The notes under the pieces: generated by a model
Seen by the model: the letters and a program-made list of their open reading frames with translations, nothing else
Database searches by the model: none
What the model was told of the DNA's origin: nothing
Shown here: piece by piece, positions 768-15,161 of the stretch
How the letters are laid out: the number at the start of each line of letters is the position of its first letter
How positions within the stretch are numbered: the stretch's first letter is position 1
Assembly: GCA_016302505.1 (NCBI GenBank)
Contig: JAEDNL010000001.1
Coordinates: forward strand, 7,851 to 71,850
Direction of reading: 5' to 3'
Source: Bacilli bacterium
GTDB lineage: Bacteria > Bacillota_I > Bacilli_A > RF39 > UBA660
DNA length: 64,000 nucleotides
Program-made: the position numbers and the translations under genes

Positions 768-790
768 TTAAAACCTCCTTTGCAAAAGAA

Positions 791-812
791 AAACAACCAT
801 TATTGGTTGTTT
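791..812 (-). terminator. 9-bp hairpin (AAACAACCA/TGGTTGTTT, loop TTAT) between the small basic ORF and mob; minus-strand terminator or candidate oriT inverted repeat
   Basis: The inverted repeat 791-799/804-812 is perfect. On the minus strand it is followed by TTTTCTTTTG. MobV oriT sites are usually inverted repeats just upstream of mob. Confidence 0.4.
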
Positions 813-815
813 AAC

Positions 816-947
816 TTAATCGCCTTTCTTGTGATGATGAGTTTTCAATGATGTTTTATTCTTAGGTGTTAACTTATTATCTCTTCTTCTGCGATCTAAC
901 TTGCCAGTACTTTTTGCCTTTGGCTTAAGCCCTGGTTTAATTGGCAT
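816..947 (-). CDS. Small, very basic 43-aa protein (below the ORF-track cutoff)
   Basis: Own translation: MPIKPGLKPKAKSTGKLDRRRRDNKLTPKNKTSLKTHHHKKGD. A strong RBS GAGGAGG sits 6 nt upstream of ATG 947..945, and the hairpin at 791-812 follows. Confidence 0.45.
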   Translation of the reverse strand: MPIKPGLKPKAKSTGKLDRRRRDNKLTPKNKTSLKTHHHKKGD

Positions 948-992
948 ATTTGTCCTCCTCTCATAAATTTGAGAACAGGTACAAGCTTAATA

Positions 993-1208
993 CTAACCTA
1001 AATTATCATTTTTTATACCATTTGGCTTTGATACTGCTGTTTCAATGCCATTAATTTTTCTGACATAGTAATTGTCGTGATAAACTGAGTTTTCATTTTT
1101 AATTCTTGAGATAAACTCTTTATCAGTCATTATATGATTATTTCTTGTATCTTGAAATACTTTGTTTCTACCACTATCTGTTTCAGAAATTACTTTAACC
1201 ATTTTCAT
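993..1208 (-). CDS. Small protein, DUF3892-like
   Basis: 71-aa ORF with RBS GGAGGA just upstream. The C-terminal YYVRKINGIETAVSKPNGIKNDNL resembles the DUF3892 pattern (Y.v...nG....v...pdg...NNL), recalled from memory. Confidence 0.45.
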   Translation of the reverse strand: MKMVKVISETDSGRNKVFQDTRNNHIMTDKEFISRIKNENSVYHDNYYVRKINGIETAVSKPNGIKNDNLG

Positions 1209-1256
1209 GATATCATCCTCCTTATTTTTGAAATTGTAAACTAATAATTTTTCATG

Positions 1257-1285
1257 TTGTAAAAATAATTTAAAGATGATATAAT
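1257..1285 (+). promoter_or_regulatory. Sigma-A type promoter: TTGTAA, 17 nt, TGaTATAAT
   Basis: -35 TTGTAA at 1257-1262, a 17-nt spacer, and an extended -10 TGATATAAT at 1277-1285. It points away from all annotated genes on this strand. Confidence 0.55.
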
Positions 1286-1291
1286 TATATT

Positions 1292-1377
1292 ACAATAATA
1301 AAATTAGTAGTTTGTTATTGTGTTGAGTATTGGCTTGTACTCGTTCTATATACTATCCTGCAAGATAGTATTTTTTT
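1292..1377 (+). ncRNA. Candidate ~85-nt small RNA, antisense to the rep-ATPase/DUF3892 intergenic part of the minus-strand operon
   Basis: It starts about 7 nt after the promoter. There are three hairpins: ACAATAA/TTATTGT (1292-1298/1315-1321), GAGTA/TACTC (1325-1329/1338-1342), and the terminator ATACTATC/GATAGTAT (1350-1357/1364-1371) followed by T7. Confidence 0.45.
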
Positions 1378-1537
1378 GTCTCAGAAAATACCTCTGGGAC
1401 TATGTACATTTTACCATATAAATCAACATCTGTCAAAAGGTAGGACGAATATATGTTTGTGACTGAAATAGAAGTCATTTTATGACTTATCTCACTAGGT
1501 CATAGACCAAATGTGAGTTAGGATAAATCCTAAAACC

Positions 1538-2482
1538 TTATTCATCTAAAGTAAGTGGATCTATAAACTTAGCTTTGTAATTTCTAGAAGTAGCAGTTCT
1601 ATTTAACTCAACATATATGCCTTCTTTTTCTAATCTTTTAATATTACTATTTAGTAATCTTCCAAAACGAGAAGGGGTAATTAGTAGATTTAATTCTGCT
1701 ATCATTTCTGCTGGAGTAAATATTACTTCTTTCTTCTTAATTACATATCTCATAAATACGCTAAGATTAAAATCTAATTCAGTATTATCTTCATTAATAA
1801 TTTCAAATTCAAGTTTATCATTTCTTATAAGATTAAGATTTTGTTCTTCAAAGTCTCTATTGATTATTTTTAAAGTATAAGTATTATCTTTATTATTGAT
1901 TAATGTTAATATACCATTCATATTACCATCAATACCTGTGCTACCTAATGTTTTACCTTCTTTATTTAAATGATGTATTAGAAGAAATGTAAGATTATAT
2001 TTTTTAGCAAGTTCTCTATATTTATCAAACATATTCTTCATAACATCACTATAATTATTAATGTCAGTTTCATATCCATAATCTATACCACACATAATAT
2101 CTATAATTACAAATCTCCCATTATAAGTTTCTGAAAACTCTTTTAAATCTAATAATAGATCATCTCTAATACATAATTTATGTTGCTCATCTTTTTGTAC
2201 AAAGAAAAATGAATTAGGTTTAAAAGTGTATCCGGTTATTTCTAATCTTTCTTTAAGTTGTAATTCTGAGATTTCTGTGCTAACATATAAAACGGATGTG
2301 GGATTAGTATTGAATCCTAAGAATTGTTTATTATTTGCCAAAGAGTTGGCAAGCTGTAATGCTAAGAATGACTTACCAACTTTTGGTTCTGCTACTAAGC
2401 AATATAATCCATTTGACTTCATTATTCCATCAATAATGTTGTCTTTTTTTATGGTTATATTTAATTCTTCTATAGGTTTCAT
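1538..2482 (-). CDS. RecA-like replication ATPase (AAA_25 / RepA-DnaB-like) with C-terminal DNA-binding-like tail
   Basis: Walker A LVAEPKVGKSF, Walker B FVIIDIM, and the HHLNKEG sensor block typical of AAA_25 proteins from plasmids, phages and ICEs. Confidence 0.7.
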   Translation of the reverse strand: MKPIEELNITIKKDNIIDGIMKSNGLYCLVAEPKVGKSFLALQLANSLANNKQFLGFNTNPTSVLYVSTEISELQLKERLEITGYTFKPNSFFFVQKDEQHKLCIRDDLLLDLKEFSETYNGRFVIIDIMCGIDYGYETDINNYSDVMKNMFDKYRELAKKYNLTFLLIHHLNKEGKTLGSTGIDGNMNGILTLINNKDNTYTLKIINRDFEEQNLNLIRNDKLEFEIINEDNTELDFNLSVFMRYVIKKKEVIFTPAEMIAELNLLITPSRFGRLLNSNIKRLEKEGIYVELNRTATSRNYKAKFIDPLTLDE

Positions 2483-2719
2483 TTATTTCTCCAGTTCTGC
2501 CATATCTTTAAGGTAAGGAACATTAATGTTTAGCTTATTAACTACTTCACACATAGGTACTAAATTACATGGTAGTTTATAACCTTGATCTGTAAGATCT
2601 GTTATTATTTCTTTTCTGATTTTAAGTGCTGAGTTTCTACCAAGACTAGTTAATTTCATTAAATCTTGTAGAGTACACCATTGTTTAGATAATAATTCTA
2701 ATGTTTCAACTGCAGTCAT
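2483..2719 (-). CDS. Small putative HTH (excisionase/AlpA-like) protein
   Basis: 78 aa. The stop abuts the start of the ATPase gene. CTLQDLMKLTSLGRNSALKIRKEI looks like an HTH_17-type helix-turn-helix. The family call is weak. Confidence 0.35.
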   Translation of the reverse strand: MTAVETLELLSKQWCTLQDLMKLTSLGRNSALKIRKEIITDLTDQGYKLPCNLVPMCEVVNKLNINVPYLKDMAELEK

Positions 2720-2731
2720 ATATCAAACCTC

Positions 2732-2950
2732 CTATCTGCTATTTATTTTTTCATTCATTTTATATAATGCATTTATTAATTCTTCTCTTGAATTATCTTC
2801 AATATCCTCATTAAGACCATATTCTACTTTAACATCTTCACGATCTTTATTTTCTATCACTCTTAATCCACATAAGTGATTATGAACTAATTCAACAATA
2901 TCATTAGTATCCATAGTAGGTAATATAGAATCTAATACTTCTTTATTCAT
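2732..2950 (-). CDS. Hypothetical small acidic protein, first gene of the minus-strand operon
   Basis: 72-aa ORF with RBS AGGAGGAAAC upstream of ATG 2950. No recognisable motif. Confidence 0.5.
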   Translation of the reverse strand: MNKEVLDSILPTMDTNDIVELVHNHLCGLRVIENKDREDVKVEYGLNEDIEDNSREELINALYKMNEKINSR

Positions 2951-3113
2951 ATGTTTCCTCCTTTCTAACCCTAAATAGGGTAGTGCGATTATATTTGAGA
3001 TTTTAGTTATCTCATAACTCCCGTGCCAATAGGGTTATAATTTCTGCCTTGCCTTTTTTGAGTTACGGCATATCGGCGATTTCCGCAACTTACAAATTTT
3101 CAAAGAACTTGTA

Positions 3114-3253
3114 GTTCCAATTTGTCAAATTATATCTTAAAATAAAAGTTCCAAATTGGAAATACAATTATAATATATCACCCTGGTTCCATAATGTCAA
3201 TATTAAAATGATAAAAAATTGACAAAATGGAATTTTTATGTTCCAAAATGGAA
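3114..3253. promoter_or_regulatory. Divergent control region with five copies of a 15-bp operator (consensus GTTCCAwwwTGTCAA / TTGACAwwwTGGAAy)
   Basis: Sites: 3114-3128 GTTCCAATTTGTCAA; 3148-3161 GTTCCAAATTGGAA; 3186-3200 GTTCCATAATGTCAA; 3219-3233 TTGACAAAATGGAAT; 3240-3253 GTTCCAAAATGGAA. They overlap plus-strand promoter TTCCAA(3241)-17-TGcTATAAT(3261-3269) and a minus-strand TTGACA (3200-3195). Confidence 0.6.
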
Positions 3254-3298
3254 AATGTATGCTATAATGGTATCAAGAAGATATTAGGAGGTATACTT

Positions 3299-3841
3299 GT
3301 GGAGAATCGTAGAAAAAGTGACATAGCTATAGGTAAAAATATGGCTGACATGCGTAATAAATTTAATTTAACACAAAAAGAAATAGCTCAAGTTGTTGGT
3401 GTTAATGTTTCTACATATAAACATTATGAGTTAGGCGATAGATGTACACCATTAGCAGTTATTAGAGACTTAGCTAACTTTTATAAAATATCAACAGATT
3501 ATTTTTTTGAAAATATGCCAGAACTATCTACAAAAGAAGAATTAGAAGTAAGAAGATTTGCTTTTGATGTATCACAAAATAAACAACAATATATTGGTGA
3601 TATTATGAATTTTTCTGAAGGTATGGCAAAATTAGAAGAAAAAGTTCAAGCAAGAGCTAGATTAAGAGTAAAAAAATATAGATTAGATAATAAAAAATCA
3701 CAACAAGAAGTTGCAGATTATTTAGGTATAGATATTTCTACTTACAATAAATATGAAAAAGGTAGTAGAAAACTTAACAATGAAGTAGTAAGAAAGATAG
3801 CTGAATATTACAATATTAAAGTTAGCGATATATTAGATTAA
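3299..3841 (+). CDS. Transcriptional regulator with two XRE/Cro-C1 HTH domains (candidate island switch / R-M controller)
   Basis: Two HTH_3 units: FNLTQKEIAQVVGVNVSTYKHYELG and NKKSQQEVADYLGIDISTYNKYEKG. The likely start is GTG 3299, 6 nt after AGGAGG (3287-3292). The track ORF begins at 3227. Confidence 0.8.
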   Translation: MENRRKSDIAIGKNMADMRNKFNLTQKEIAQVVGVNVSTYKHYELGDRCTPLAVIRDLANFYKISTDYFFENMPELSTKEELEVRRFAFDVSQNKQQYIGDIMNFSEGMAKLEEKVQARARLRVKKYRLDNKKSQQEVADYLGIDISTYNKYEKGSRKLNNEVVRKIAEYYNIKVSDILD

Positions 3842-3900
3842 TGACAGAATGACATTAGATTTAGGTGTGGACTACACCGATAGTTAATGTCATAATGTCA
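3842..3900. promoter_or_regulatory. 59-nt imperfect palindrome between the regulator and the first methyltransferase
   Basis: TGACAGAATGACATTA (3842-3857) pairs with TAATGTCATAATGTCA (3885-3900), 14 of 16 positions. An inner stem GGTGT/ACACC sits at 3864-3868/3874-3878. The arms contain tandem TAATGTCA units related to the operator half-site. Confidence 0.5.
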
Positions 3901-3921
3901 CAACAAGATAAGGAGAAGTAT

Positions 3922-4983
3922 ATGAGTAAATATAATGTTTTAGATTTGTTTTGTGGATGCGGAGGTTTAAGCAAGGGATTTGAAATGGCCGGATTTAATA
4001 TTATTGGCGGAGTTGATTTTAATAAAGAAGCAATAGATACATTTAATTTTAACTTTAAAGGATCAAAAGGAATTCACACTGATATATTAAATATTGATGA
4101 AGAAAAGATAAAAGAAATATTTGAAAATAAAGTTGATATCATTATTGGTGGTCCACCTTGTCAGGGCTTTTCTTCAGCAAATAGAAATAAAGTAGATGAT
4201 GATCCTAGAAATAAATTGTTTTTTCAATTTGTAAAATTTGTAGATGTTTTTAAACCAAAAGTTGTTGTAATAGAAAATGTTAGGGGAATTGTTACAGAAA
4301 ATAATGGATATGCAAAAAAAGAAATATATAAAATATTTGAAAAAAGAGGATATAAAGTAACTCATAAAATTCTTGATGCATCAGATTATGGCGTACCACA
4401 AAAAAGAATGAGAAATTTCTTTGTTATGTCGAAAGATTTTATTTTTGATTTTGAAAAGATTAATAAAGTATCAAAAAAAGTAACAGTTAAGGATGCAATT
4501 GGTGATTTATACAAACTAGAAAAAAATGAAAAAGAAATAAAAAATGCAAATTTTGAAGATATGTCATCATATGCAAAAAAGATGAATAAAAAATCAGATA
4601 TATATAATCATGAAGTTAGATACCCGGCAGAAATTGTTCAAAAACGAGTTTCTTATGTTAAACAAGGAGAAAATTGGCAATCAATACCTAAAGAATTATT
4701 TTCTAATCAAAGAAATAATAGGCATTCTTCAGCATACAAAAGATTAAATGAAAAAGATGTTTCAGTAACTATTGATACAGGCAATTCTCATAGTAATTAT
4801 TTTCATCCGTTATATAATAGGATACCTACAGTAAGAGAGGCTGCAAGAATTCAGTCATTCCCAGATAACTTTATATTCTGCGGTTCTAGAACTAGTCAAT
4901 ATAGACAGGTTGGTAATGCTGTGCCACCTTTACTTGCTAATTCAATTGCTAAACTAATAAAGGAGGATTTGGATAATGAATAA
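3922..4983 (+). CDS. DNA (cytosine-5)-methyltransferase, M1 of the R-M operon
   Basis: Motif I FCGCGG, IV GGPPCQGFS, VI ENVRG, VIII QKRMRNFF, IX TVREAARIQSFPDNF, X GNAVPPLLA. Start is ATG 3922, after AAGGAG. Confidence 0.92.
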   Translation: MSKYNVLDLFCGCGGLSKGFEMAGFNIIGGVDFNKEAIDTFNFNFKGSKGIHTDILNIDEEKIKEIFENKVDIIIGGPPCQGFSSANRNKVDDDPRNKLFFQFVKFVDVFKPKVVVIENVRGIVTENNGYAKKEIYKIFEKRGYKVTHKILDASDYGVPQKRMRNFFVMSKDFIFDFEKINKVSKKVTVKDAIGDLYKLEKNEKEIKNANFEDMSSYAKKMNKKSDIYNHEVRYPAEIVQKRVSYVKQGENWQSIPKELFSNQRNNRHSSAYKRLNEKDVSVTIDTGNSHSNYFHPLYNRIPTVREAARIQSFPDNFIFCGSRTSQYRQVGNAVPPLLANSIAKLIKEDLDNE

Positions 4984-6016
4984 TATTATAGATCTTTTTT
5001 GTGGATGTGGAGGCCTAAGCAAAGGATTTGAAATGGCCGGATTTAATACAGTTTTAGCAATTGATTTTTGGAAAGATGCAGTTGAAACATTTAATAATAA
5101 TCATAAAAACAAAGTTGCTATATGTGATGATGTTTCAAAAATATCTAATGATTTTTTAGATGATTTTACCAAAAAAAATAAAATAACTGGTATTGTAGGT
5201 GGCCCACCATGTCAAGGATATAGTACGGTTGGTAAAAGAGATATAAATGATGATAGAAATTATTTATATCTTCAATATTGTAGAATAGTTGAAAAAGTTA
5301 AACCAGAGTTTTTTGTTTTAGAAAATGTAAAAGGATTATTAACTTTAAATAATGGTAAATTTAAAGAAGATATAGTAGAAAGATTTACAAAATTAGGATA
5401 TATAGTCGATTATAAAATTTTAAATTCTGCAGATTACGGTGTACCTCAAAATAGAAATCGAGTTTTCTTTGTTGGAATTAAGAATAAAAAGTTTAAATTT
5501 CCTAAGGAAAAATTAAAAAAAGTGACTACATATGAAGCAATATCGGATTTAACAAGTTATGAAGATAAATATACTACATCAGCTCAAACAAGTTATCAAA
5601 AAAATATGAGGGGAAATAATAAACAACTAAAGAATAATGAGTTCACAGTTCATACTGAGAAAACTATTGATGTTATAAGTAAAATCCCAGATGGAGGTAA
5701 AATAACAGATTTACCAAAAGAATTTTGGGAGATTAGAAAGTACAATAAAGCATTTCAAAGAATGAATTCTAAATTACAATCAAATACCATAGATACAGGA
5801 CATCGAAATTATTTTCATTATAGTGAAAATAGAATACCAACTGTTAGAGAATCAGCTAGAATTCAGTCGTTTCCTGATAACTTTATTTTCTATGGTTCTA
5901 GAACTAGTCAGTATAAGCAAGTAGGTAATGCTGTACCACCTTTATTGGCAAATGCTATTGCTATAGAAATAATGAAACAGATTGGAGGAGATGAAGATGG
6001 AAAAGATTGTTCTTAA
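4976..6016 (+). CDS. DNA (cytosine-5)-methyltransferase, M2 (paralogue of M1)
   Basis: FCGCGG, GGPPCQGYS, ENVKG, QNRNRVFF, TVRESARIQSFPDNF and GNAVPPLLA are all present. It overlaps M1 by 8 nt. Confidence 0.92.
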   Translation: MNNIIDLFCGCGGLSKGFEMAGFNTVLAIDFWKDAVETFNNNHKNKVAICDDVSKISNDFLDDFTKKNKITGIVGGPPCQGYSTVGKRDINDDRNYLYLQYCRIVEKVKPEFFVLENVKGLLTLNNGKFKEDIVERFTKLGYIVDYKILNSADYGVPQNRNRVFFVGIKNKKFKFPKEKLKKVTTYEAISDLTSYEDKYTTSAQTSYQKNMRGNNKQLKNNEFTVHTEKTIDVISKIPDGGKITDLPKEFWEIRKYNKAFQRMNSKLQSNTIDTGHRNYFHYSENRIPTVRESARIQSFPDNFIFYGSRTSQYKQVGNAVPPLLANAIAIEIMKQIGGDEDGKDCS

Positions 6017-6737
6017 TCAAGTATCTAATCCAGGAATTAGTTTTACAAAAGATGTTAATGAAAAAATATTAGCATTATATGATTTTTTAAATTCTAATAA
6101 TAAGAATTGTACTTATCAGCAATTTCAAGAAGACTTGATAAATAGCCAAATATTTACTGGATCATATATTAGATCTTTTATTCCTTTTCTATATAATGCA
6201 GGAATAATTAATGATTACAATAATGGAATTGCTTATAATGACCTATTTACAAAGAACGGATTACTATATGTACAAATTGTTAGAAATATAAAGAATGCTA
6301 GTGACAGTAATATAGATTTATCTAAAATGCTTGTAATTAAAAGCGATTTACTCTGCATGTCACTTGATTACATGATAAAAAGCAAATATAAATTTTACGA
6401 TAAATATTTAGACATTTTAAAATTTATAAAAAAATATAGAACAATTAATAGAGAAGAGTTTTATATAATGGAATATTGTTTACAAAATAGTTATAACTAT
6501 GATGATTATATAAATGCGTATAGAAATGAAAGTAAACAATATGATATATATATTAATTCAAATAATGATGAAGTATTAAGCTACAGAAGTAATAATGCAT
6601 TTAATTATTTAATTGCATTTTTATCAGAAGAACAATGTAATTACTTAAAAAAATTGAATCAGGGTGATTATATAATTAATGAAGAAAGAGAAAAATTTAT
6701 AGATTTAGTATTAAATAGTGAAGGAGATGTTAAATAA
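5997..6737 (+). CDS. Hypothetical 246-251-aa protein inside the R-M operon (possible third restriction subunit, position analogous to BsuMI YdiR)
   Basis: It overlaps M2 at its 5' end and the McrB-like gene at its 3' end. GGAGG at 5984-5988 favours ATG 5997. No catalytic motif is recognisable. Confidence 0.55.
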   Translation: MEKIVLNQVSNPGISFTKDVNEKILALYDFLNSNNKNCTYQQFQEDLINSQIFTGSYIRSFIPFLYNAGIINDYNNGIAYNDLFTKNGLLYVQIVRNIKNASDSNIDLSKMLVIKSDLLCMSLDYMIKSKYKFYDKYLDILKFIKKYRTINREEFYIMEYCLQNSYNYDDYINAYRNESKQYDIYINSNNDEVLSYRSNNAFNYLIAFLSEEQCNYLKKLNQGDYIINEEREKFIDLVLNSEGDVK

Positions 6738-8703
6738 TATGGATAACTATGAAGCTTTAAAAAATGATATAGAGAAGAATATAAATGAAATGGTTAATGA
6801 TTTGAATTTAAACGTTGATTCGAATAATCAAATGAAAAATCGTTTTGTTGAATGGATGCTAAAAAATCAATTTGAACAAAAAACTGTTAATAATTATACT
6901 AATGCTATATCAGTTGTATCAAGAGAAGCAATAAACGAAAATCTAATTAATAAACCTATCTATGATATAGATAACGTTAAAGAATTGGATGAATTGTTAG
7001 AAAAGCTAAATCAAAATCAAACTTACATTGAAAGAAGAGTAGCCAGTCATAATACAAATTCAGCAGCTATGAATCAATATAGAAAATTTTTAGAAGATAT
7101 TAATATGACTACAATAGAAGAAGACAATATCAATATAATAGAAAAATTTAAAAAATATTATTTTGATAATATAGAAGAATATAAATTAAATGAAGAAGCA
7201 ATTAATGGAATTAAACTTAGAGAAAAATTTAATGTAGAATATCCTATAACGAAATTAAAAAATATGTCTCTAGAAGAATATGCTTTAGGTACTGATAATT
7301 TTGTTAATTCTTTATCATATAAACTAGAATTTGGTGAGTATAAACATGCTGGAATGGGTTGTGGAGGCGGAAGCTCTGCAAAACATGGAATATATTTTAG
7401 TAAGGATAATGTTTATAGAGGATATAAAAATGAAGTTATTGACAATCCTGAGGAATATTGGATTAATTTTAGAAATCAATTATGTGATTTTTTAACTGAA
7501 ATAGGTGAAACAAATGAATTCCCTAATGTTGAAGAAAAATACCCTTTAATACAAACAATCCCATTAATAGCTGCAAAATTATGCTTTCTATATTATCCTA
7601 ATTATTTTATTTCAATTGGTTCAAGAGGAAAGTTACAAACAATTACTGAATTATTTGAAATACAATCGCAAGACGATGGTATATCTGCAAGAATTTCATT
7701 TAATATTTGTAAATTTTTTAAAGAGGCCTTTCCAGAAAGATTATCTGATGATCCTCAATGGCTTGGATATGCTTTATGGAGATTCATAAATGAATTTGAA
7801 AATGACGAAATTGAAGAAGTTGAACAAGAAAATAAAGATGAGAAATATGATAAAAATGATTTTCTAAATGAAGTGTTTATTGATGAAGAAAAATATAATT
7901 CAATAGTATCCGTTCTTGAAAAAAAGAAGAATATTATTTTGGAAGGTGCTCCTGGTGTTGGGAAAACCTTTATGGCAAAAAGATTAGCTTATTCTATTAT
8001 AGGTAGAAAGGATAAGAGTCAAGTTCAATTAATTCAGTTCCATCAGAGTTATTCATATGAAGACTTTATCGAAGGTTTTAGACCAACCGAAAACGGATTT
8101 AAACTTGAAAAAGGTTTATTTTATAAAATATGTAAAAAAGCTGAATCAAATCCTAAAGAAAAGTTTTATTTAATTATAGATGAAATAAACAGAGGAAATC
8201 TAAGTAAAATATTTGGAGAATTATTAATGCTTATTGAAACTGATAAGCGTGGTGATGAATTAACACTGGCATATTCGGAATTAACTTTTAGTGTTCCAAG
8301 TAACTTGTTTATAATCGGTTTGATGAATACTGCTGATAGATCACTTGCTTTAATTGATTATGCCTTAAGAAGAAGATTTTCGTTTATAAGGATTGAGCCG
8401 GCATTTGATAGTCCTAAATTTATAAAAGCATTTAATGATAAATTTGATCAAGATTTTAATAAAATAATTGAAATTATCAAGAAAATTAATGATGCAATAG
8501 AAGATGATAAATCACTAGGCTCAGGATTCAAAATAGGTCATAGTTATTTTTGTCCTGATATAAAAGATAGAAAAGGGAATAAAAGAGATATTGAAGACAT
8601 AATTACATACGAAATAATTCCTTTATTAGAAGAATATTGGTATGATAATCCTGACTCTATTATCCAATGGAAAGATGCTTTAAATGGTGTATTAAATGAT
8701 TAA
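6718..8703 (+). CDS. McrB-like GTPase (AAA+ AAA_5) restriction subunit with a long (~390 aa) non-homologous N-terminal region
   Basis: Walker A GAPGVGKTF, Walker B plus signature LIIDEINRGNLSKIFGELLMLIE, and the MNTADRSLALIDYALRRRF block diagnostic of the McrB family. The alternative start is ATG 6739. Confidence 0.85.
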   Translation: MKEMLNNMDNYEALKNDIEKNINEMVNDLNLNVDSNNQMKNRFVEWMLKNQFEQKTVNNYTNAISVVSREAINENLINKPIYDIDNVKELDELLEKLNQNQTYIERRVASHNTNSAAMNQYRKFLEDINMTTIEEDNINIIEKFKKYYFDNIEEYKLNEEAINGIKLREKFNVEYPITKLKNMSLEEYALGTDNFVNSLSYKLEFGEYKHAGMGCGGGSSAKHGIYFSKDNVYRGYKNEVIDNPEEYWINFRNQLCDFLTEIGETNEFPNVEEKYPLIQTIPLIAAKLCFLYYPNYFISIGSRGKLQTITELFEIQSQDDGISARISFNICKFFKEAFPERLSDDPQWLGYALWRFINEFENDEIEEVEQENKDEKYDKNDFLNEVFIDEEKYNSIVSVLEKKKNIILEGAPGVGKTFMAKRLAYSIIGRKDKSQVQLIQFHQSYSYEDFIEGFRPTENGFKLEKGLFYKICKKAESNPKEKFYLIIDEINRGNLSKIFGELLMLIETDKRGDELTLAYSELTFSVPSNLFIIGLMNTADRSLALIDYALRRRFSFIRIEPAFDSPKFIKAFNDKFDQDFNKIIEIIKKINDAIEDDKSLGSGFKIGHSYFCPDIKDRKGNKRDIEDIITYEIIPLLEEYWYDNPDSIIQWKDALNGVLND

Positions 8704-9760
8704 TGTTGATAATAAAGTAAAAAATATATATTATATGTTATGTTATTCATTTTATGGAGAATTGTTGAATGAAAAGGATGAGGCTGAGTTAGGCTCTGAG
8801 GCATTTGATAATATATATAATTTATTTTCTTTATTATTATGTCTTATTTTAAAAAAAGAAGTTAAAAAAGGATTGCACAGAGAGTATATAGGTACAAATG
8901 ATGAACTTGGAACTATTAGAGGAAAAATAAACATAAATGAAACAATTAACAAGAATTCACTAACAAGAAAAAAAGTATATTGTGAATTTGATGAGTATAA
9001 TGAAAATTGTTTATTAAATAGAGTAATAAAAACAACAATGTATTATTTAATTAAATCTAATAAAATAGGTAAAGTGTCAAAAGAATCTATAAAAAAATTA
9101 TTAAACTATTTTAATAAGGTAGATATAATTGAAATTAAAACAATTAAATGGGATCGGATTAAATTTAATAGAAATAATATGTCATATAAATATATAGTTG
9201 ATTTATGTAAGCTAATATTAAATGGATTGATAGTTAGTGATAAAAATGGCAATAACAAGTTTAAAGAATTCTTAGATGATACTAGAATTAGTGCAATATA
9301 TGAAAATTTTATAAAGGAATATTATAGAAAACATTACCCTGAACTAAATGCTTGTTCAAAGAAATTATATTTAACAAATAAACCACTTACATCTTATATT
9401 CCAATGATGAAGACTGATATTACATTAACATATGAAGAAAGAATGTTAATAATTGATGCTAAATTTTATAATAAAATATTACGAGATAATTACCTAAATG
9501 CAAGGTGCAAGACAATTTCAAATAATAACTTGTATCAAATATTAACTTATGTGGATAACCAAGATCCACTGAAAAAAGGTAACGTTTATGGTATGTTACT
9601 TTATGCACAAACAACTGATGAACCATCTATATCAATTACCGATACATTAAATCAACATAAAATAATGGTAAAAACATTAAATTTAAATGATGATTGGCAG
9701 AGTATAAGAGAAAGATTAAATATCATAGCAAATTGCTTTAAAACTGATACTTTCCAATAA
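8696..9760 (+). CDS. McrC-like PD-(D/E)xK nuclease subunit
   Basis: It overlaps the McrB-like gene by 8 nt. The C-terminal LIIDAKFYNK (D-x-K) block and the size and position match McrC / LlaJI.R2. Confidence 0.7.
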   Translation: MINVDNKVKNIYYMLCYSFYGELLNEKDEAELGSEAFDNIYNLFSLLLCLILKKEVKKGLHREYIGTNDELGTIRGKININETINKNSLTRKKVYCEFDEYNENCLLNRVIKTTMYYLIKSNKIGKVSKESIKKLLNYFNKVDIIEIKTIKWDRIKFNRNNMSYKYIVDLCKLILNGLIVSDKNGNNKFKEFLDDTRISAIYENFIKEYYRKHYPELNACSKKLYLTNKPLTSYIPMMKTDITLTYEERMLIIDAKFYNKILRDNYLNARCKTISNNNLYQILTYVDNQDPLKKGNVYGMLLYAQTTDEPSISITDTLNQHKIMVKTLNLNDDWQSIRERLNIIANCFKTDTFQ

Positions 9761-9763
9761 AAA

Positions 9764-9787
9764 AAGTGGCAATTATTTGCCACTTTT
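9764..9787 (+). terminator. Rho-independent terminator of the R-M operon
   Basis: AAGTGGCAA-TTAT-TTGCCACTT followed by TTTT, 4 nt after the stop codon. Confidence 0.7.
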
Positions 9788-9814
9788 ATGCTATAATAAT
9801 AGCTAAAATGTGGG

Positions 9815-10759
9815 GTGATTAATTTGACTGAAGAAGCAATAGAAAAAATAAAATCAGAATTAACAGATGATCAAATAATGCAACTAGTATATTTATTACA
9901 AAAAGATAAACTTGTTGAGTTAAAAGAACTAGCACGTAAAAAATGTAAGACTAAATTTGTCAATGTAATGAGAAGATATGTTAATAAGTTTTTTAAAGAC
10001 TTAGAAAATGATAAAGAATTTAAAAGACCAGAAACAGTAAACTTATTAAATCAAACTAGAAAAACGTTGAAAAATGTTTATAAATTTATTAAAAATAAAG
10101 AAGTAGTTGATGCTAATTCATTATTAAGATCTGCATTTGAAAACTTAATAATGGGTATGATGATTAATGAAAGTGAAGATACCTATAAGGAGTTTATTAA
10201 TTTATCTATAGATGATACAACTAGACAATATACTAAACCTCAAAAATTAAGAAATGATTTTAGAAAAGTATTACGTAAATTAGATGGTGATTTATTTATA
10301 GATATGAATAGTAGAGATTTAAAGGATTTTCTTGATGAGTTCTATGATAAGATGTGTTTATTTACTCATAGTACTATATTAGTCAATGCTATGATAGAAA
10401 TAGAAAAAGATGATGATTTAGATATATATGTCGTAGCTTTAAAACAGAATACTTATTTTGTAGAATTGCTATTATATTTATGTTTAAAGTATCTTTGTAA
10501 TTATAAAAAAGATCCAATTGATATTACATATTTATTATTAGGCTGGTATGTTTTAATTAGTGATGTTTCTAAAGAAAAAATCACACCAGAAAAGATGAAA
10601 AAACTAAATAAATTGTTATATGCCGATTTTAATAAGGAATATTTGGAAAAGAATAAAGAAAATGTTGATTTTTTGACAGAAGAAGCAAAAAAATTACAAG
10701 AAGATATACAAAAAAATCCTACTGGATTTGTAGAACTTCTTACAACATTAGTTAAATAA
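9815..10759 (+). CDS. Hypothetical 311-314-aa helical protein (orphan, own promoter)
   Basis: TGcTATAAT at 9788-9796. Start is GTG 9815 or TTG 9824, after GGGGTGA. No clear motif. The segments LLRSAFENLIMG and FTHSTIL vaguely recall DUF5677/AbiV-type helical proteins. Confidence 0.55.
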   Translation: MINLTEEAIEKIKSELTDDQIMQLVYLLQKDKLVELKELARKKCKTKFVNVMRRYVNKFFKDLENDKEFKRPETVNLLNQTRKTLKNVYKFIKNKEVVDANSLLRSAFENLIMGMMINESEDTYKEFINLSIDDTTRQYTKPQKLRNDFRKVLRKLDGDLFIDMNSRDLKDFLDEFYDKMCLFTHSTILVNAMIEIEKDDDLDIYVVALKQNTYFVELLLYLCLKYLCNYKKDPIDITYLLLGWYVLISDVSKEKITPEKMKKLNKLLYADFNKEYLEKNKENVDFLTEEAKKLQEDIQKNPTGFVELLTTLVK

Positions 10760-10760
10760 T

Positions 10761-10795
10761 TTTAGGTACGTAATTAGATGCGTAAAGTACCTAAA
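10761..10795 (+). terminator. 9-bp hairpin TTTAGGTAC/GTACCTAAA after the 314-aa gene (no clean U-tract)
   Basis: A perfect inverted repeat 2 nt after the stop codon. A second imperfect hairpin follows at about 10840-10860. Confidence 0.35.
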
Positions 10796-10878
10796 AACAT
10801 ATAAATTTGCATAAACTTAAATAAACTGATATGTATATAAACCTTTATAAATAAAGGGTTTTATATATTTTATAAATA

Positions 10879-10893
10879 TTGACAATATGGAAC
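10879..10893. promoter_or_regulatory. Sixth copy of the island operator (TTGACAATATGGAAC) immediately upstream of the structured RNA
   Basis: It differs at 1 of 15 positions from the reverse complement of the 3186-3200 site (TTGACATTATGGAAC). Confidence 0.5.
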
Positions 10894-10894
10894 T

Positions 10895-10985
10895 CAGTCG
10901 CCCCCTGAAGAGAGCGAAAGCTCTCATTTTTGTTTGTATTAAAGGATTTGCAATAGTCACAAAAATTTTAGGCGACATTTTTTTA
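10895..10985 (+). ncRNA. Structured ~90-nt RNA element (three-way junction plus U-tract) upstream of the two-HEPN gene
   Basis: Closing stem GTCGCC (10897-10902)/GGCGAC (10971-10976). Hairpin GAGAGC-GAAA-GCTCTC (10910-10925). Hairpin ATTTTTGT (10926-10933)/ACAAAAAT (10959-10966). Then A plus T7 (10978-10984). It is locally GC-rich in an AT-rich spacer. The 5' end and promoter are not defined. Confidence 0.55.
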
Positions 10986-11031
10986 ATTTTTACTTTGCTA
11001 TGATATAATATTTTCATAAGTAGGTGATGTT

Positions 11032-12702
11032 ATGGATAAATTAAATTCGGCTTTATCTTATTATAATGGAGTTAAAGCTTATTCGTTTTTTTTACTTAAT
11101 CAATTCGGAGATACTTCCTTTGATGGAGGTTTAATTCTAGAGAAAAATAATTATAATGCGGCAAAGGTTGCATTTATAAGTAGTATACTTCTTGGGGCAA
11201 AAGAGGATATAGTAGAAAAGTTACCTAATTTAGAATTTGGTTCTTTAATATATGAAGATGATCTTATTAAGAATGTTAAATTAATAGCAACGAAAGATAA
11301 AGATGATTATGTTATAGATAATTATAAATTTAGTTCAGCTGCTGAAGTGGTAGCAATGATTAGAAATAAGTTTGCTCATGGAAATTTTGAGCTAGATCTT
11401 GAACATAGTAGAATAATATTTGATTTTGCTGGAACTAAAGTTAAATTAAATATAGATAAATTAACTAACTTCGTGGTAATTGCATTAAATAATTATTATG
11501 AAAAATCTCAAAACAAAAAATATTATAAGGTTATATTAGAAAGTGATAAAGTTCTTGCAGATCGTAAAAAAACTTTTTCTAGTCCTACTGATGTTAAAAC
11601 CTTTATATTAAATTTAAATAAATTTTCGGTATCATTAAAAAGAAAAGATGGAGAAATTATTCCTCATGATTTGAAGTCTATACTTGATGGGGTTGTTAAT
11701 GGATATAAAAAAGATATGAACCTTAAGGTATTTTTAACTTTTAAACATTTTATTAATGATGAATATGATTTGGATTGGGGTAAAAGCAAAGTAGTAATTG
11801 ATGATATTGATGATTTTTCTATGGTTATGTATAATCAAGTGAAAGAGTTAGATTATGATTCTGCGGTAAATTTTGTAATGAATTCTGTCGCTGATGTAAT
11901 ACTTAAAAATAACAAGACATCTCACATGACTTCGTCGCTAAGGAACTTATTACTACTAGATGCGACTTATCATACTAATTCAATTTCTAAAGATAAGTTA
12001 TTTAATTATTTGAGTGATAAATTTGGTAATTACTTTTTTATAGGTAATAGAGAACTAGCTTCTTCTAGTATTTGCTTGTTTCAAACATTATTTGCATACT
12101 TGCATGACGATTATTTTGATAATGATAATAAATATACTAGTTTACCAAATAATGGTCTTAAATATGCTGCTTTAGATGTGTCTTGTTTTAATATTGATTA
12201 TTTAAAAGCAGATAGAAAAGTAATTAATCAATACTTGGAGGTTTATAATGGTGCTAGCAAGAGATTACTAGAAATAAGAAATAAGATTAACCAAAATACT
12301 TTAAGTTTAAATGTTGTTAAGCAAAAAGGCAATTTAAAAGCAGTAAGCGTGTTGAGTCAAAATATTGCAAATGAAAAACTCTTGGAAGCACAGTATGCTC
12401 AAGATGAAATTAATGCTAAGGCTAGTTATGATGAGGCGATTTTATATGAGGCAAATAATCTCGATTTAATTAAAAATAGAGCAATCATTAATGGAATAAG
12501 AAATAGCATAGCTCATGGTAATTATACATTTTATGTAGAAGATGGGGTTTCTAAAATATTATTTGAGGATTTATATGAGGGTGAATGCACTTTTAGAGCA
12601 AGTGTTTCTGTTGTTGATTTTTTGAATTTTATTTATGCTAGTGAAGCAATTGTAACAAGTTTTATTAATAGTAAAATTAAGGTAAATGACGCTTCTCTTT
12701 AA
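11032..12702 (+). CDS. 556-aa protein with two HEPN RNase motifs (RNxxAH at residues 111-116 and 490-495); Abi/Cas13-ancestor-like
   Basis: MIRNKFAHGNF (nt 11362-11379) and GIRNSIAHGNY (nt 12499-12516). TGaTATAAT at 11001-11009, AGGTGA RBS, ATG 11032. Confidence 0.75.
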   Translation: MDKLNSALSYYNGVKAYSFFLLNQFGDTSFDGGLILEKNNYNAAKVAFISSILLGAKEDIVEKLPNLEFGSLIYEDDLIKNVKLIATKDKDDYVIDNYKFSSAAEVVAMIRNKFAHGNFELDLEHSRIIFDFAGTKVKLNIDKLTNFVVIALNNYYEKSQNKKYYKVILESDKVLADRKKTFSSPTDVKTFILNLNKFSVSLKRKDGEIIPHDLKSILDGVVNGYKKDMNLKVFLTFKHFINDEYDLDWGKSKVVIDDIDDFSMVMYNQVKELDYDSAVNFVMNSVADVILKNNKTSHMTSSLRNLLLLDATYHTNSISKDKLFNYLSDKFGNYFFIGNRELASSSICLFQTLFAYLHDDYFDNDNKYTSLPNNGLKYAALDVSCFNIDYLKADRKVINQYLEVYNGASKRLLEIRNKINQNTLSLNVVKQKGNLKAVSVLSQNIANEKLLEAQYAQDEINAKASYDEAILYEANNLDLIKNRAIINGIRNSIAHGNYTFYVEDGVSKILFEDLYEGECTFRASVSVVDFLNFIYASEAIVTSFINSKIKVNDASL

Positions 12703-12775
12703 GTAGTGAATAAAGGCTAATTTATTGTAAATAATAGTAATAGATGGTATAATTTTATTGATTGTAGGTGGTATT

Positions 12776-13939
12776 TTGTATAGAAAAACTTACGCACTCA
12801 TTGATTGTGATGTAATAAAAAGTAATATTGAAAAAATAAGAGAAACTTATAATGATTATAAATATTATTTTGGAGTTGTTAAAGCTAATGCTTATGGTCA
12901 TGGAATATATGTTATTAATGCGATGATTGATGCAGGAATAAATTATTTGGCAGTAGCCACATTGGAAGAGGCTTTAAATATTAGAAAATTGAATAAAAAG
13001 ATTTCGGTTATAGTACTTGAACCAATAGATGCTTCTAATGCCAAGGTTGCTGCACTAAATAATATAACTATTACAATAGATGATGTAGAAAACTTTAAGG
13101 ATATCTTAAATCAAAAAGTTAAACTAAAATTTCACATGAAAATTGATACTGGGATGAATAGATTTGGTTTAAAGAAGAGTGAAGATGCTGATTATATTTA
13201 TAAGAATTCAAATAATATACTTGTTTTGGAAGGAATTTTTACTCAGCTTTATTCAGGATTTGGAGAAGAATTAAAAAAAGAGGAAAATAGATTTTTGGAA
13301 ATTACAAAAAATATTGATTTATCAAAAGTGCCAATTGTTCATTTGGATCGTTCATTAACTTTAGAACAGCACGAAAGGTTCTCTTTTGCAAATGGCGTAA
13401 GACTAGGAATAATTATGTATGGATTTCCTAAGAGAGTGTATCAGCCATCTTTAAAAAGACGAATATATAATTTTGTACTTAGAAAAAAAACGACTAGTGA
13501 AGAAAGCGTTCTTAAATTAAATACAGCATTTAAGTTTTATACAACTGTAATGGAAACAAAAAGTGTATTGCCTGGAGAAGTAGTTGGGTATGGTGGTATG
13601 TATGATAGTAAAGAAAATAGTAAGATTGCTATTTTACCTTATGGATTTGCTGATTTTACGTTTATTAAGCCAACTAACGTGTATATTAAAAATAGGAAAT
13701 ATAAAATTATAACTAATTATATGGATATAACAAGTGTTATAGTTGATGATTCAGTTAAATCAGGTGACATGGTAGAAATATTTGGTGATATAATTAAAAT
13801 TAGAGAAGCAGCAGAAGAAGCAGGCGTAAATGTTTATAAGCTTCTTTGCAGTGTTACAACTAGAGTACCACGGGTTTATAAGTATCAGAATAAAGAGGTA
13901 GAGGTTAATTATTTAGGAGGATTAGATGAAAAAATTTAG
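12776..13939 (+). CDS. alr: Alanine racemase
   Basis: PLP-site motif VVKANAYGHG, and a C-terminal YGG...Y block. TGgTATAAT at 12744-12752 and AGGTGG at 12765-12770 favour TTG 12776. The track start is 12758. Confidence 0.85.
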   Translation: MYRKTYALIDCDVIKSNIEKIRETYNDYKYYFGVVKANAYGHGIYVINAMIDAGINYLAVATLEEALNIRKLNKKISVIVLEPIDASNAKVAALNNITITIDDVENFKDILNQKVKLKFHMKIDTGMNRFGLKKSEDADYIYKNSNNILVLEGIFTQLYSGFGEELKKEENRFLEITKNIDLSKVPIVHLDRSLTLEQHERFSFANGVRLGIIMYGFPKRVYQPSLKRRIYNFVLRKKTTSEESVLKLNTAFKFYTTVMETKSVLPGEVVGYGGMYDSKENSKIAILPYGFADFTFIKPTNVYIKNRKYKIITNYMDITSVIVDDSVKSGDMVEIFGDIIKIREAAEEAGVNVYKLLCSVTTRVPRVYKYQNKEVEVNYLGGLDEKI

Positions 13940-15161
13940 AGCTTTAATTATTGGAAATGATATAAATGCATATTATTTGGCGAGATGTTATCATGAATTT
14001 ACTGGAGAAAAAGCTGATTTACTTGCTAATTATATTGCTGGGGAAAAACCATTTTCATATACAAGATATACGAATATTTTAAACATTAGATATCGTGAAA
14101 ATCTATGGGATGAAAAAGTGTTTTTAGAGGAATTAGATTTGTATTTTAATGAACATAAGAAAGAAAAGATTTTACTTGTTAGTAGTAATGAGACTTACGG
14201 TGAGTTTATTGCTAAAAATAAAGCAAAGTTAAAAAAGAAATTTTTCTTTAATTATCCTAGTGTTAAGTTACAACATACTTTAGTAAATAAAGAGGATTTT
14301 TATAAGACTTATGCTGATTATGAAATAGATTTACCTAGATCAATTTATTATGATTGTACAAAGGATGAAAAAATAAATGAATGTGATATTACTTTTCCAG
14401 TAATTGTTAAACCAGCAAATGTAATTCTTTTTAAGCATATTAGTTTTGCTGGGAAAAAGAAAATTTACAAATTAGAAAATATGGAAGAACTTAATGATGT
14501 TATTAATAAGTTTAAAAAAGGAAATTATACTGATACGATAATTATTCAAGAGTATATTCCTGGAGATGATTCTCATTTGTTTGATGCTGTGGTTTATGCT
14601 GATAAAAATAAAAAAGTTAAGATGGTATCATTTGCTCAAATTGGCTTACAAGAACATGCACCAAGAATGATTGGTAACGCAGCGGTTATTATTAATGGGT
14701 ATTCTCAGTATCCAGGAGTAGAAGAGCAAATTGAAAAGATTAGAAAGTTTACTGAAAAAATTGGTTATCAGGGTTTTGCAGAATTTGATATGAAATATGA
14801 TGCAAGAGATGGTAAGTATAAAGTTATGGAGATTAATGCAAGACAGGGAAGATGTTCTTATTATATTGTGCCTGCTGGTTTTAATTTAATAGAGTTACTT
14901 TATAAAGATTTAATTGAAGGCAAAGATTTAAAATATAAAGTTTGCAATAAAGAAGTTTTAGAGACTTTTGTACCTAAAAAGGTTGTGAAAAAATACATAA
15001 CTAATGAAGAATATAAAGCAAAAGTATTATCTATGTGGAAAGATAGAGTTGAGGCTTTAAATTATAAAAAAGATACAAGTTTTTTAAGAAAATTATTATT
15101 AATTAAGATTAGATATAACTATATTAAAGATTATAAAAATTTTAAATGGGACTGGAAATAG
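13926..15161 (+). CDS. ATP-grasp family carboxylate-amine ligase (unknown substrate)
   Basis: PVIVKPAN, IIQEYIPGDD and EFDMKYDARDGKYKVMEINARQGR match ATP-grasp B/C-domain motifs. It overlaps alr by 14 nt. Confidence 0.7.
   Translation: MKKFRALIIGNDINAYYLARCYHEFTGEKADLLANYIAGEKPFSYTRYTNILNIRYRENLWDEKVFLEELDLYFNEHKKEKILLVSSNETYGEFIAKNKAKLKKKFFFNYPSVKLQHTLVNKEDFYKTYADYEIDLPRSIYYDCTKDEKINECDITFPVIVKPANVILFKHISFAGKKKIYKLENMEELNDVINKFKKGNYTDTIIIQEYIPGDDSHLFDAVVYADKNKKVKMVSFAQIGLQEHAPRMIGNAAVIINGYSQYPGVEEQIEKIRKFTEKIGYQGFAEFDMKYDARDGKYKVMEINARQGRCSYYIVPAGFNLIELLYKDLIEGKDLKYKVCNKEVLETFVPKKVVKKYITNEEYKAKVLSMWKDRVEALNYKKDTSFLRKLLLIKIRYNYIKDYKNFKWDWK

Follow-up and report, generated by a model that had tools for sequence, protein, structure and literature searches.

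The HEPN domain is built from four helices in an up-down bundle. Its motif, Rx4-6H, stands at the end of helix 3, inserts occur between helices 2 and 3, an acidic residue is often found in helix 2, and in the Csx1 family a beta-hairpin follows right after the motif (PMC3710099). The arginine of the motif is usually followed by a polar residue. We here describe a protein of 556 amino acids with two motifs of this kind. Its gene lies at positions 11032-12702 of a stretch of 64,000 nucleotides from a Bacilli bacterium (assembly GCA_016302505.1, contig JAEDNL010000001.1), which as a whole is called the window. The protein founds a new, unnamed two-HEPN family that has so far been met only in uncultured low-GC gut Bacilli, and it is best read as an RNase that probably stays latent until it is triggered.

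Several described systems come close. Cas13 effectors carry two HEPN domains at opposite ends of the chain; the compact Cas13an proteins, known since 2024, measure 429-577 amino acids (Yoon et al., PMC12165695). The available part of the list of non-CRISPR intramolecular HEPN dimers given by the same authors names A0A1Y6ANL6 of Bacillus mobilis (509 amino acids) and G7MBT4 of Clostridium sp. DL-VIII (467 amino acids). AbiF has one HEPN domain, forms a homodimer and resides on plasmids and prophages. An RNA that lies upstream and contains abiF motifs (RF03085) neutralises it, and it has been proposed as the ancestor of Cas13 (PMC12373285, PMC12737573). ApeA and DARNA/PD-T7-3 are stand-alone HEPN defence genes without an antitoxin. 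Their products are self-inhibited at rest and join a catalytic HEPN domain to a non-catalytic region that senses the trigger (bioRxiv 10.64898/2026.02.22.705581). CnuE of the type III-A CoCoNuT systems combines two HEPN domains with coiled coils and is encoded in one operon with CnuB, CnuC and CnuH (Bell et al. 2024, PMC11090510). Finally, the family PF18736 (pEK499_p136 HEPN) has been described from restriction-modification (R-M), ART/Macro, NamA and Pgl operons (Anantharaman et al. 2013, PMC3710099).

The protein and its family

The open reading frame (ORF) starts with ATG on the forward strand, and the coordinates given include the stop codon. Its translation contains two catalytic-type motifs, R111-N-K-F-A-H116 (IRNKFAHGNF, nucleotides 11362-11379) and R490-N-S-I-A-H495 (IRNSIAHGNY, nucleotides 12499-12516), just where a preliminary description of this DNA had placed them. 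Both are embedded in I-R-N-x-[FI]-A-H-G-N-[FY]. Arginine occurs only 12 times in the protein and histidine 8 times, and its Rx4H motifs are exactly two, each of them RNxxAHGN. When the sequence was shuffled 20,000 times, two or more Rx4H motifs turned up in 223 cases and at least one RNxxAH in 28. About 370 residues, containing a domain of their own, separate the two motifs.

The motif-bearing units at the two ends are homologous, as judged from sequence comparison. BLASTP of the N-terminal against the C-terminal part finds 11 identities in 28 positions (E 6e-4). A profile-profile alignment of residues 1-160 with residues 380-556 (hhalign) covers 39 columns with a probability of 92.8% and an E value of 3.9e-7. 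The similarity is short and lies after the motifs; the middle region, compared by profiles in the same way, resembles neither end. An internal duplication of the unit, which the preliminary description had claimed, thus stands.

A search of 5.8 billion proteins, clustered at 90% identity, yielded 317 homologues. The nearest clusters (one 98% identical, one 93%, and a large group at about 51%) comprise proteins of 556-561 amino acids, every one of them unnamed or "hypothetical". By profile search among 1.84 billion representatives of clusters at 50% identity, 256 proteins were found at E<=1e-3, 97 of them even at E<=1e-30. With few exceptions they are 530-600 amino acids long and match over their full length. 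Scans of the 556-residue protein with PADLOC, NCBIfam and PHROGs gave no matches. The earlier statement that it could be assigned to no named family still applies, as no curated model of Pfam or of these three collections is matched at its threshold.

The motifs were followed through an alignment of 108 homologues, which are 18-51% identical to the window protein and have a mean column identity of 24%. In motif 1, R111 is kept in 105 of the 108 sequences, the asparagine in 97, the alanine in 91, H116 in 105 and G117 in 104. The corresponding figures for motif 2 are 107 for R490, 99 for the asparagine, 101 for the isoleucine, 106 for H495 and 102 for G496. Altogether, 33 positions are kept in at least 80% of the sequences. 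They cluster at K57-E58, R111-G117, D122, N476, N482, I485-G496, F511, D513 and F521; F350 and Y356 of the middle region are conserved as well.

A scan of one genome per species provided 75 loci, almost all from metagenome-assembled genomes (MAGs) of uncultured gut "Tenericutes" or "Bacilli", Firmicutes bacterium CAG:460, Mycoplasma sp. CAG:472 and Clostridium sp. CAG:628 among them. We take the source lineage to be the GTDB order RF39. A few short contigs with a family member had been binned as Muribaculaceae; at least one of them (L060; loci are labelled in this way where they have to be told apart) has flanking genes in common with Bacilli loci, and these contigs therefore look mis-binned.

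Domains and the HEPN assignment

AlphaFold produced a model from the 108-sequence alignment with a mean predicted local distance difference test (pLDDT) score of 95.1 and a predicted template modelling (pTM) score of 0.91; it replaces an earlier run on a 9-sequence alignment, which had reached a pLDDT of 62. The model divides the protein into three parts. The N-terminal HEPN-like domain, residues 1-157 (11032-11502), has helices at 3-24 and 38-59, an insert, a helix at 103-115 ending in the motif, three strands and a helix at 141-157. The near-invariant pair K57-E58 sits in its second helix. The middle region, residues 160-380 (11509-12171), is mixed strand and helix, then helical. It has no Pfam match, no match by sequence in the PDB and belongs to no recognisable family. 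The C-terminal HEPN-like domain, residues 385-556 (12184-12699), begins with two very long helices, 396-431 and 435-475. A helix at 477-494 ends in the second motif and is followed by three strands and a helix at 527-555. All three parts are, of course, encoded on the forward strand.

This predicted layout fits the published description of HEPN domains: each motif stands at a helix end, the N-terminal domain has an insert, E58 lies in helix 2, and strands follow each motif before the final helix. The conserved Rx4-6H that characterises the domain is present in both units, its arginine and histidine being kept in 105-107 of the 108 divergent members.

Profile searches point in the same direction. 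The only Pfam match of the window protein is PF18736, at residues 386-536 (E 1.3e-4), with 22.2 bits against a cut-off of 26.6 bits. Two of 31 diverse family members match this model at E<=0.01. When the N-terminal domains of 55 members were scanned, HEPN models were the commonest matches: MAE_28990 in six, RiboL-PSP in four (best E 2e-6), Apea in two, and pEK499_p136, Csm6_HEPN and Abi_2 in one member each. The weak matches thus recur across six models of the HEPN clan and across both domains. The profile check proposed in the preliminary description has in this way yielded HEPN-clan matches, weak and below threshold as they are, and neither an Abi_2 match of the full-length protein nor a Cas13 match.

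The PDB was searched by sequence with four queries, namely the whole protein, its middle region and the profiles of the family and of its N domain. All returned coiled-coil or chance matches only; the long helices of the C-terminal domain draw nothing but coiled-coil noise. Taken together, motif conservation, the weak profile matches and the predicted secondary structure make it likely that both ends are HEPN domains.

Comparison with described systems

Cas13 has the same arrangement as the family, two HEPN domains at opposite chain ends, and Cas13an is of similar size. The window protein is not smaller than all Cas13 effectors, since Cas13an proteins span 429-577 residues (PMC12165695). The HEPN2 motifs of Cas13an, LRNHVAHGG and IRNQIAHGG, are of the kind R-N-x-x-A-H-G-G/N-aromatic, like motif 2 of the family, and Cas13an loci, like those of the family, lack other cas genes. 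There are differences, too. In the family the motifs are about 370 residues apart and enclose a separate domain, as against a distance of about 230 residues in Cas13an2, and the family gene is chromosomally fixed, whereas Cas13an is sporadic. The family hidden Markov model, run against the first 400 amino acids of four Cas13an sequences from the supplement of Yoon et al., gave a best E value of 0.85.

CRISPR-like arrays were sought by repeat and tandem-repeat scans. None is present in the 64-kb window, where the preliminary description had likewise seen neither an array nor nearby cas genes. The other loci fetched, about 90 related ones, also lack arrays to a distance of about 8 kb from the gene. 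The sole signal of the repeat scan was a collagen-like Gly-X-Y coding repeat that adjoins a family member (L035:7159-7456). With no array, no NCBIfam or PADLOC match and no Cas13 structure matched by Foldseek, membership in Cas13 is not demonstrable.

AbiD and AbiF have the RNxxAH flavour and the predicted toxin-like RNase activity in common with the family. Unlike AbiF, the family has two domains, no abiF RNA, short upstream gaps and no copies found on mobile elements. The full-length window protein has no Abi_2 match, a single one of the 55 N-terminal domains touches that model at a chance-level E of 0.03, and PADLOC reports nothing. In the PDB, Foldseek matched neither an AbiF nor a Cas13 structure; PbAbiF (8VZ6) was presumably in the library searched, judging by its date. 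The comparison of a predicted structure with Cas13 and AbiF, from which the preliminary description expected an answer, has thus brought no link in the PDB and nothing in BFVD. Membership in AbiD/AbiF (Abi_2) was rejected: Abi_2 and RF03085 are not matched, and the protein is two-domained and not mobile. The proposed place on a continuum from AbiF to Cas13 likewise finds no support in Abi_2, PADLOC and NCBIfam models, in the Cas13an sequences or in the structures searched.

ApeA and DARNA contain one HEPN domain and form the active site by oligomerisation, whereas the family has two such domains. The PADLOC models, which are expected to include ApeA and PD-T7-3, do not match the window protein, and the Apea model of Pfam is touched only weakly, by two of the 55 N-terminal domains.

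CnuE begins with a winged helix, which is not seen in the window protein, and its second motif is reduced to RxH, in contrast to the two full Rx4H motifs here. Membership in this group was rejected, also in view of the strain-specific McrBC neighbour and of a missing CnuH helicase.

The type member of PF18736, WP_000528932.1 of the E. coli plasmid pEK499, shows M-R-N-S-V-A-H, then a strand and a conserved phenylalanine, as does the family, and aligns with it at the motif and the following strand only; to its own model it scores 168 bits. It is a single-domain plasmid protein of 166 amino acids, in contrast to the chromosomal two-domain protein of 556 amino acids in the window, and the family gene has no partners like those in the operons of PF18736. 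The score of 22.2 bits against 26.6 and the different architecture led us to reject membership.

The two Firmicutes proteins from the available part of the list of Yoon et al., A0A1Y6ANL6 and G7MBT4, resemble the family in having two HEPN domains, a similar size and no CRISPR array. The family profile shows no similarity to their first 400 residues, and none of the two-HEPN clusters in that part of the list stems from the lineage of the family.

The edge of a variable island

The gene is chromosomal and forms the fixed right-hand flank of a hot spot for integrative elements and defence cargo. The right boundary of this strain-variable island lies at 10900/10901, 131 nt before the ATG, and the sequence rightward of it is kept in all strains compared. 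When positions 1-11100 of the window were aligned by blastn with eight loci of the same species that carry different cargo, homology began at 10900 or 10901 in all eight. Mobile and defence cargo is thus exchanged at a sharply defined point. The preliminary description had put the gene on a mobilisable island directly behind an R-M system. The adjacency is real; the gene itself stands outside the R-M/McrBC island.

Directly upstream of alr the 556-residue gene is present in 14 of 14 strain contexts examined. On three contigs with a 98%-identical protein, the downstream genes are alr, a 411-residue ATP-grasp gene, a small ORF, a UvrD-like helicase gene, addA and addB. Upstream, these contigs differ from the window and carry an integrase, a Mob relaxase, Fic, a two-component system and an ABC transporter. 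Ten further distinct contexts, reached via the ATP-grasp protein of the window, all have the gene directly upstream of alr. Identifiable cargo precedes it in seven of them and varies from strain to strain: a DUF6339 protein; an AAA_5 ATPase with a LlaJI-type restriction enzyme; type I HsdR with GmrSD; an integrase with DUF4314 and a Dam methylase; GmrSD with DUF4379; two small unannotated ORFs; and DUF3892. The other three contigs end too near the gene to tell.

Sister species, with a protein of 51% identity, show the same picture: the gene is again directly upstream of alr, in synteny with the ATP-grasp gene and addAB. The cargo before it comprises R-M genes, T5orf172, Fic, a helicase, DUF3800 and Dam, or else almost nothing (Dam and DUF4160, after recG). 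Defence cargo is consistently bordered by the family gene in at least three species of the window's genus. Being the invariant flank of an exchange hot spot across strains and sister species, the gene is therefore vertically inherited within the genus.

The cargo of the window itself (3865-10759) consists of two Dcm-type C5 cytosine methylases (3865-4983 and 4976-6016), a 251-residue ORF without a Pfam match, an McrB-like AAA_5 protein (6718-8703) and McrC (8696-9760), the latter two on the same strand as the two-HEPN gene, and a 314-residue ORF with a weak match to DUF5677 (9815-10759). The whole set recurs in L008, from the near-identical MAG UMGS1372, and the McrBC cargo is common to these two only. 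Among 92 related loci McrBC was found in no third one, and in twelve other strain contexts, where other cargo or none is visible, the two-HEPN gene is kept throughout. A relative of the 314-residue ORF, 38% identical, occurs in a different island, that of L004. On the reverse strand of the same sister-species island (L004:8791-8914), beside a DUF3800 gene, Rfam recognises the RNA motif DUF3800-I (RF02969) with 44.7 bits, the threshold being 44.2 bits. On the other side of the two-HEPN gene (window 12758-15161), alr overlaps the ATP-grasp gene by 14 nt. The ATP-grasp protein, which is unusually conserved (90% identity between species, dN/dS 0.015), is weakly similar to the C-terminus of D-Ala-D-Ala ligase and may possibly form a cell-wall amino-acid ligase pair with Alr.

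The upstream spacer

The 272 nt between the 314-residue ORF and the gene (10760-11031) fold better than shuffled sequences (z -3.07) and contain three hairpins. Two of them, 10760-10796 and about 10838-10868, are on the strain-specific island side. The third, found by terminator scan and folding on the forward strand at 10910-10935 and kept in L001-L003, is terminator-like: the stem-loop GAGAGC-GAAA-GCTCTC (10910-10925, with a GAAA loop) is followed by the T-run ATTTTTGTTT. It likely insulates the gene from transcription that leaves the island.

Farther down, still on the forward strand, an extended -10 box TGATATAAT (11001-11009) and a ribosome-binding site AGGTGA (11022-11027) can be read from the sequence; both are kept in L001-L003. 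They suggest a putative promoter of the gene's own with a leader of only about 20 nt. The -10 box is absent from the consensus scan list because its -35 region is poor. Just upstream of it, at 10963-10977, stands the unit TTTTAGGCGACA, which is single in the window and doubled as TTTTAGGCGACATTTTAGGTGACA in L001-L003 (L001:9920-9945); similar units, TTTAGGTAGCA, occur on the island side of L001. An upstream repeat, TTTAGGYRVCA, was considered as an operator or att motif and dropped, since its two matches in the window were equalled by 7 of 100 shuffles.

Conservation among strains is confined to the last 131 nt of the spacer, which hold the terminator-like hairpin and the putative promoter. 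In sister species the spacer measures 45-73 nt. The gap to the preceding gene has a median of 55 nt over 83 members of the family and is below 100 nt in 60 of them; in several the two genes overlap by 4-11 nt. At the gathering score Rfam recognises only a tRNA elsewhere in the window, and around the gene it finds nothing at E<=10. Neither the abiF motif RF03085 nor another Rfam family was matched around the gene or in eight diverse family loci. What had been taken for a structured RNA upstream of the gene thus resolves into terminator-like hairpins, two of them belonging to the island. The simplest reading of the spacer is a set of insulating terminators, then the gene's own promoter and a short leader.

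Rates of evolution and copies in other lineages

Between the window and sister species the two-HEPN protein is 51-52% identical. The values for its neighbours are 65-66% for Alr, 73-74% for AddB, 78% for the UvrD-like helicase, 81-82% for AddA, 90% for the ATP-grasp protein and 48% for the small ORF of about 110 residues. It thus diverges faster than five of the six flanking genes (65-90%), the sixth being the small ORF. Within the species, the ratio of nonsynonymous to synonymous substitution rates (dN/dS) among 13 strains is 0.34 for the two-HEPN gene, 0.25 for alr, 0.087 for the UvrD-like helicase and 0.015 for the ATP-grasp gene. Judged from these sequences, the gene is constrained and yet fast-evolving, which is compatible with a conflict-type gene and no proof of one.

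Beyond the genus of the window, synteny with alr is lost. Clustering of flanking ORFs from about 80 loci showed arrangements that are kept within sub-lineages and differ between them. No neighbour, RNA-metabolism genes included, is common to all lineages, nor was a conserved antitoxin, immunity or partner gene found beside the family genes. Neighbours were identified in part by eye from sequence and in part with Pfam support.

Tandem duplicates, 4-9 nt apart, occur in L019 (2488-5527), L031 (1008-4341), L032 (2301-5634) and L039 (7989-11345); the pairs of L031 and L032 precede two copies of a 577-residue protein with an Amidoligase_2 domain. Copies are shortened in L063 and L078; that of L064 starts near a contig end and may be merely cut. 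In L075 (7986-9250; CP091726.1, a MAG deposited as a complete chromosome) the family gene is spread over at least five frames, either as a pseudogene or by frameshift errors of the assembly.

In six species (L023, L033, L039, L042, L050 and L055) a protein of about 246 residues is encoded directly upstream of the family gene. The two genes overlap by 8-11 nt in L023, L042 and L050 and are 1-51 nt apart in the other three. The same gene stands second downstream in L057, a possible fragment lies at L075:7515-7733, and the window locus lacks it. Pfam finds no match; by eye, the pattern GxGxxG...AVKIY...VIDTD looks like a small protein-kinase-like fold. A kinase-like partner, if true, would recall RNase L/Ire1 or Las1-Grc3.

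Possible function

The reading that we favour, with a probability of roughly 0.45, is that of a stand-alone, lineage-specific RNase with two HEPN domains in a single chain, which would be activated by a trigger in an abortive-infection-like response. The arginines and histidines of the RNxxAHG motifs would form the pairs at the centre of an HEPN RNase that works without metal. This centre might be formed by pairing of the N- and C-terminal domains within the chain, as in Cas13, or by pairing of like with like in a homodimer. Both motifs are kept in full over deep divergence, which suggests that both are probably needed. The gene is accompanied by no antitoxin, RNA partner or guide array, and self-inhibition that a trigger releases, as in ApeA and DARNA (bioRxiv 10.64898/2026.02.22.705581), is therefore presumed as the most economical model. 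A signal sensed via the middle region of about 220 residues, or via the long helical hairpin, would switch the enzyme on, and the active enzyme would then cut tRNA, rRNA or mRNA of the cell in a response to stress or phage. The fast rate, the duplications and the position at the island edge fit a conflict-type gene.

Several observations weigh against the triggered RNase and have to be set beside the competing explanations. Each HEPN profile match is below its curated threshold or confined to few members, and Foldseek, run with the model of pLDDT 95, reached best E values of 0.4 in the PDB and 0.12 in BFVD, all of it helical noise. The latter negative is weak, as Foldseek and hidden Markov models likewise failed to link Cas13an to other Cas13s (Yoon et al., PMC12165695). 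Outside the genus most neighbours are housekeeping genes (recG, hrcA-grpE-dnaK, gpsA, tsaB, uvrC and ftsK; DUF1848, PFOR, a P-type ATPase, oligoendopeptidase F, ftsW and yebC were also seen), and those with a flavour of conflict are few: a NERD nuclease, an amidoligase, an XRE-type membrane protein and a phosphodiesterase with a weak PglZ match. No tblastn match was obtained in 50,697 phage or 72,556 plasmid records, and none in a scan of IMG/VR. The dN/dS of 0.34 indicates purifying selection, near the 0.25 of alr. Such neighbours, the lack of matches on mobile elements and the purifying selection are as compatible with housekeeping as they are with defence. The preliminary description had itself named homologues that are housekeeping genes, never in mobile or defence contexts, as evidence against its proposal; this applies in part, for the distant homologues stand mostly among housekeeping genes and none turned up in the phage, plasmid or viral-contig collections. 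A housekeeping nuclease of routine RNA maturation or turnover, adjacent to defence islands by coincidence, must be taken seriously, though we still regard it as unlikely. Eukaryotic Las1, a HEPN nuclease of rRNA processing, may serve as its model. It would explain why the gene occurs in every strain context examined and keeps its position across the species of the genus, why in other genera it lies among housekeeping genes, sometimes overlapping the one upstream by 4-11 nt, and why neither copies in phage, plasmid and viral-contig collections nor an antitoxin or immunity partner were found. It sits badly, however, with 51% identity where most flanking core genes have 65-90%, with a mean column identity of 24% in the family, with the lack of any neighbour conserved across lineages, RNA-metabolism genes included, with tandem duplicates (L019, L031/L032, L039) and shortened copies (L063, L078), and with the defence cargo consistently bordered in at least three species.

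The other explanations are less probable. A core-genome gene that represents an independent, non-CRISPR lineage of single-chain HEPN heterodimers, with N/C pairing within the chain and activation by a ligand or an unlinked RNA, is conceivable and in our view quite doubtful. Very unlikely is an inactive protein, structural or regulatory, with ends that merely resemble HEPN domains and motifs kept for binding. Such a protein would account for the lack of any curated profile at threshold and of a HEPN structure in Foldseek, and several families are known to have HEPN domains without catalytic activity (PMC3710099). Yet Arg, Asn, His and Gly of both motifs are kept in at least 90% of very divergent members, which is the pattern of active HEPN RNases, whereas inactivated ones lose the arginine or the histidine (PMC3710099), and weak matches to six HEPN-clan models recur in both domains. 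We give hardly any credence to a module carried by the island, for abortive infection or of the type III toxin-antitoxin kind, with the upstream RNA as antitoxin to an AbiF-like toxin on its way to Cas13. The RNxxAH flavour shared with Abi_2 proteins and with HEPN2 of Cas13an, the Cas13-like layout in the size range of Cas13an (PMC12165695) and the well-folding spacer of 272 nt (z -3.07) speak for it. But the gene is outside the island, strains share only the last 131 nt of the spacer, spacers of sister species (45-73 nt) and of the family (median 55 nt) are short, and RF03085 and other Rfam families are not matched. Nor is there more of Abi_2 than the one N-terminal domain of 55 (E 0.03), any PADLOC or NCBIfam match, any significant match to Cas13an or the PDB, or a repeat array in any locus scanned. 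Least probable of all is an effector of the adjacent McrBC system in the manner of CnuE of type III-A CoCoNuTs. McrB (AAA_5) and McrC indeed lie just upstream on the same strand (6718-9760), and the long helical hairpin with two HEPN motifs recalls the two HEPN domains and coiled coils of CnuE (PMC11090510). McrBC and the 314-residue ORF are, however, restricted to the window and L008, while twelve other contexts keep the HEPN gene. Three terminator-like hairpins and a separate putative promoter lie in between, the winged helix, RxH motif and CnuH helicase of the CoCoNuT are not seen here, and McrBC-type genes do not co-occur with the family across lineages (about 80 loci).

Biological meaning

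Single-chain proteins with two HEPN domains are thought to be the starting material of Cas13, and compact ones are wanted as RNA tools. The new family is useful in this respect: it comprises 256 clusters at 50% identity, has a model of pLDDT 95 without a structural neighbour in the PDB, and is unnamed in the libraries searched. With no partner gene or RNA found, it offers a clean system for studying how a two-HEPN RNase is restrained and activated. If the heterodimer reading were true, a sensitive structure comparison might place the family beside the clade of AbiD/F and Cas13an, and it would be a second example of two HEPN genes fused into a compact regulated RNase. If the protein has a housekeeping role instead, it would be a HEPN nuclease that performs a routine task in bacterial cells, which is rare.

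To our knowledge, phage defence of uncultured low-GC gut Bacilli has been little studied. In these organisms the locus provides a precisely mapped point at which defence cargo is exchanged.

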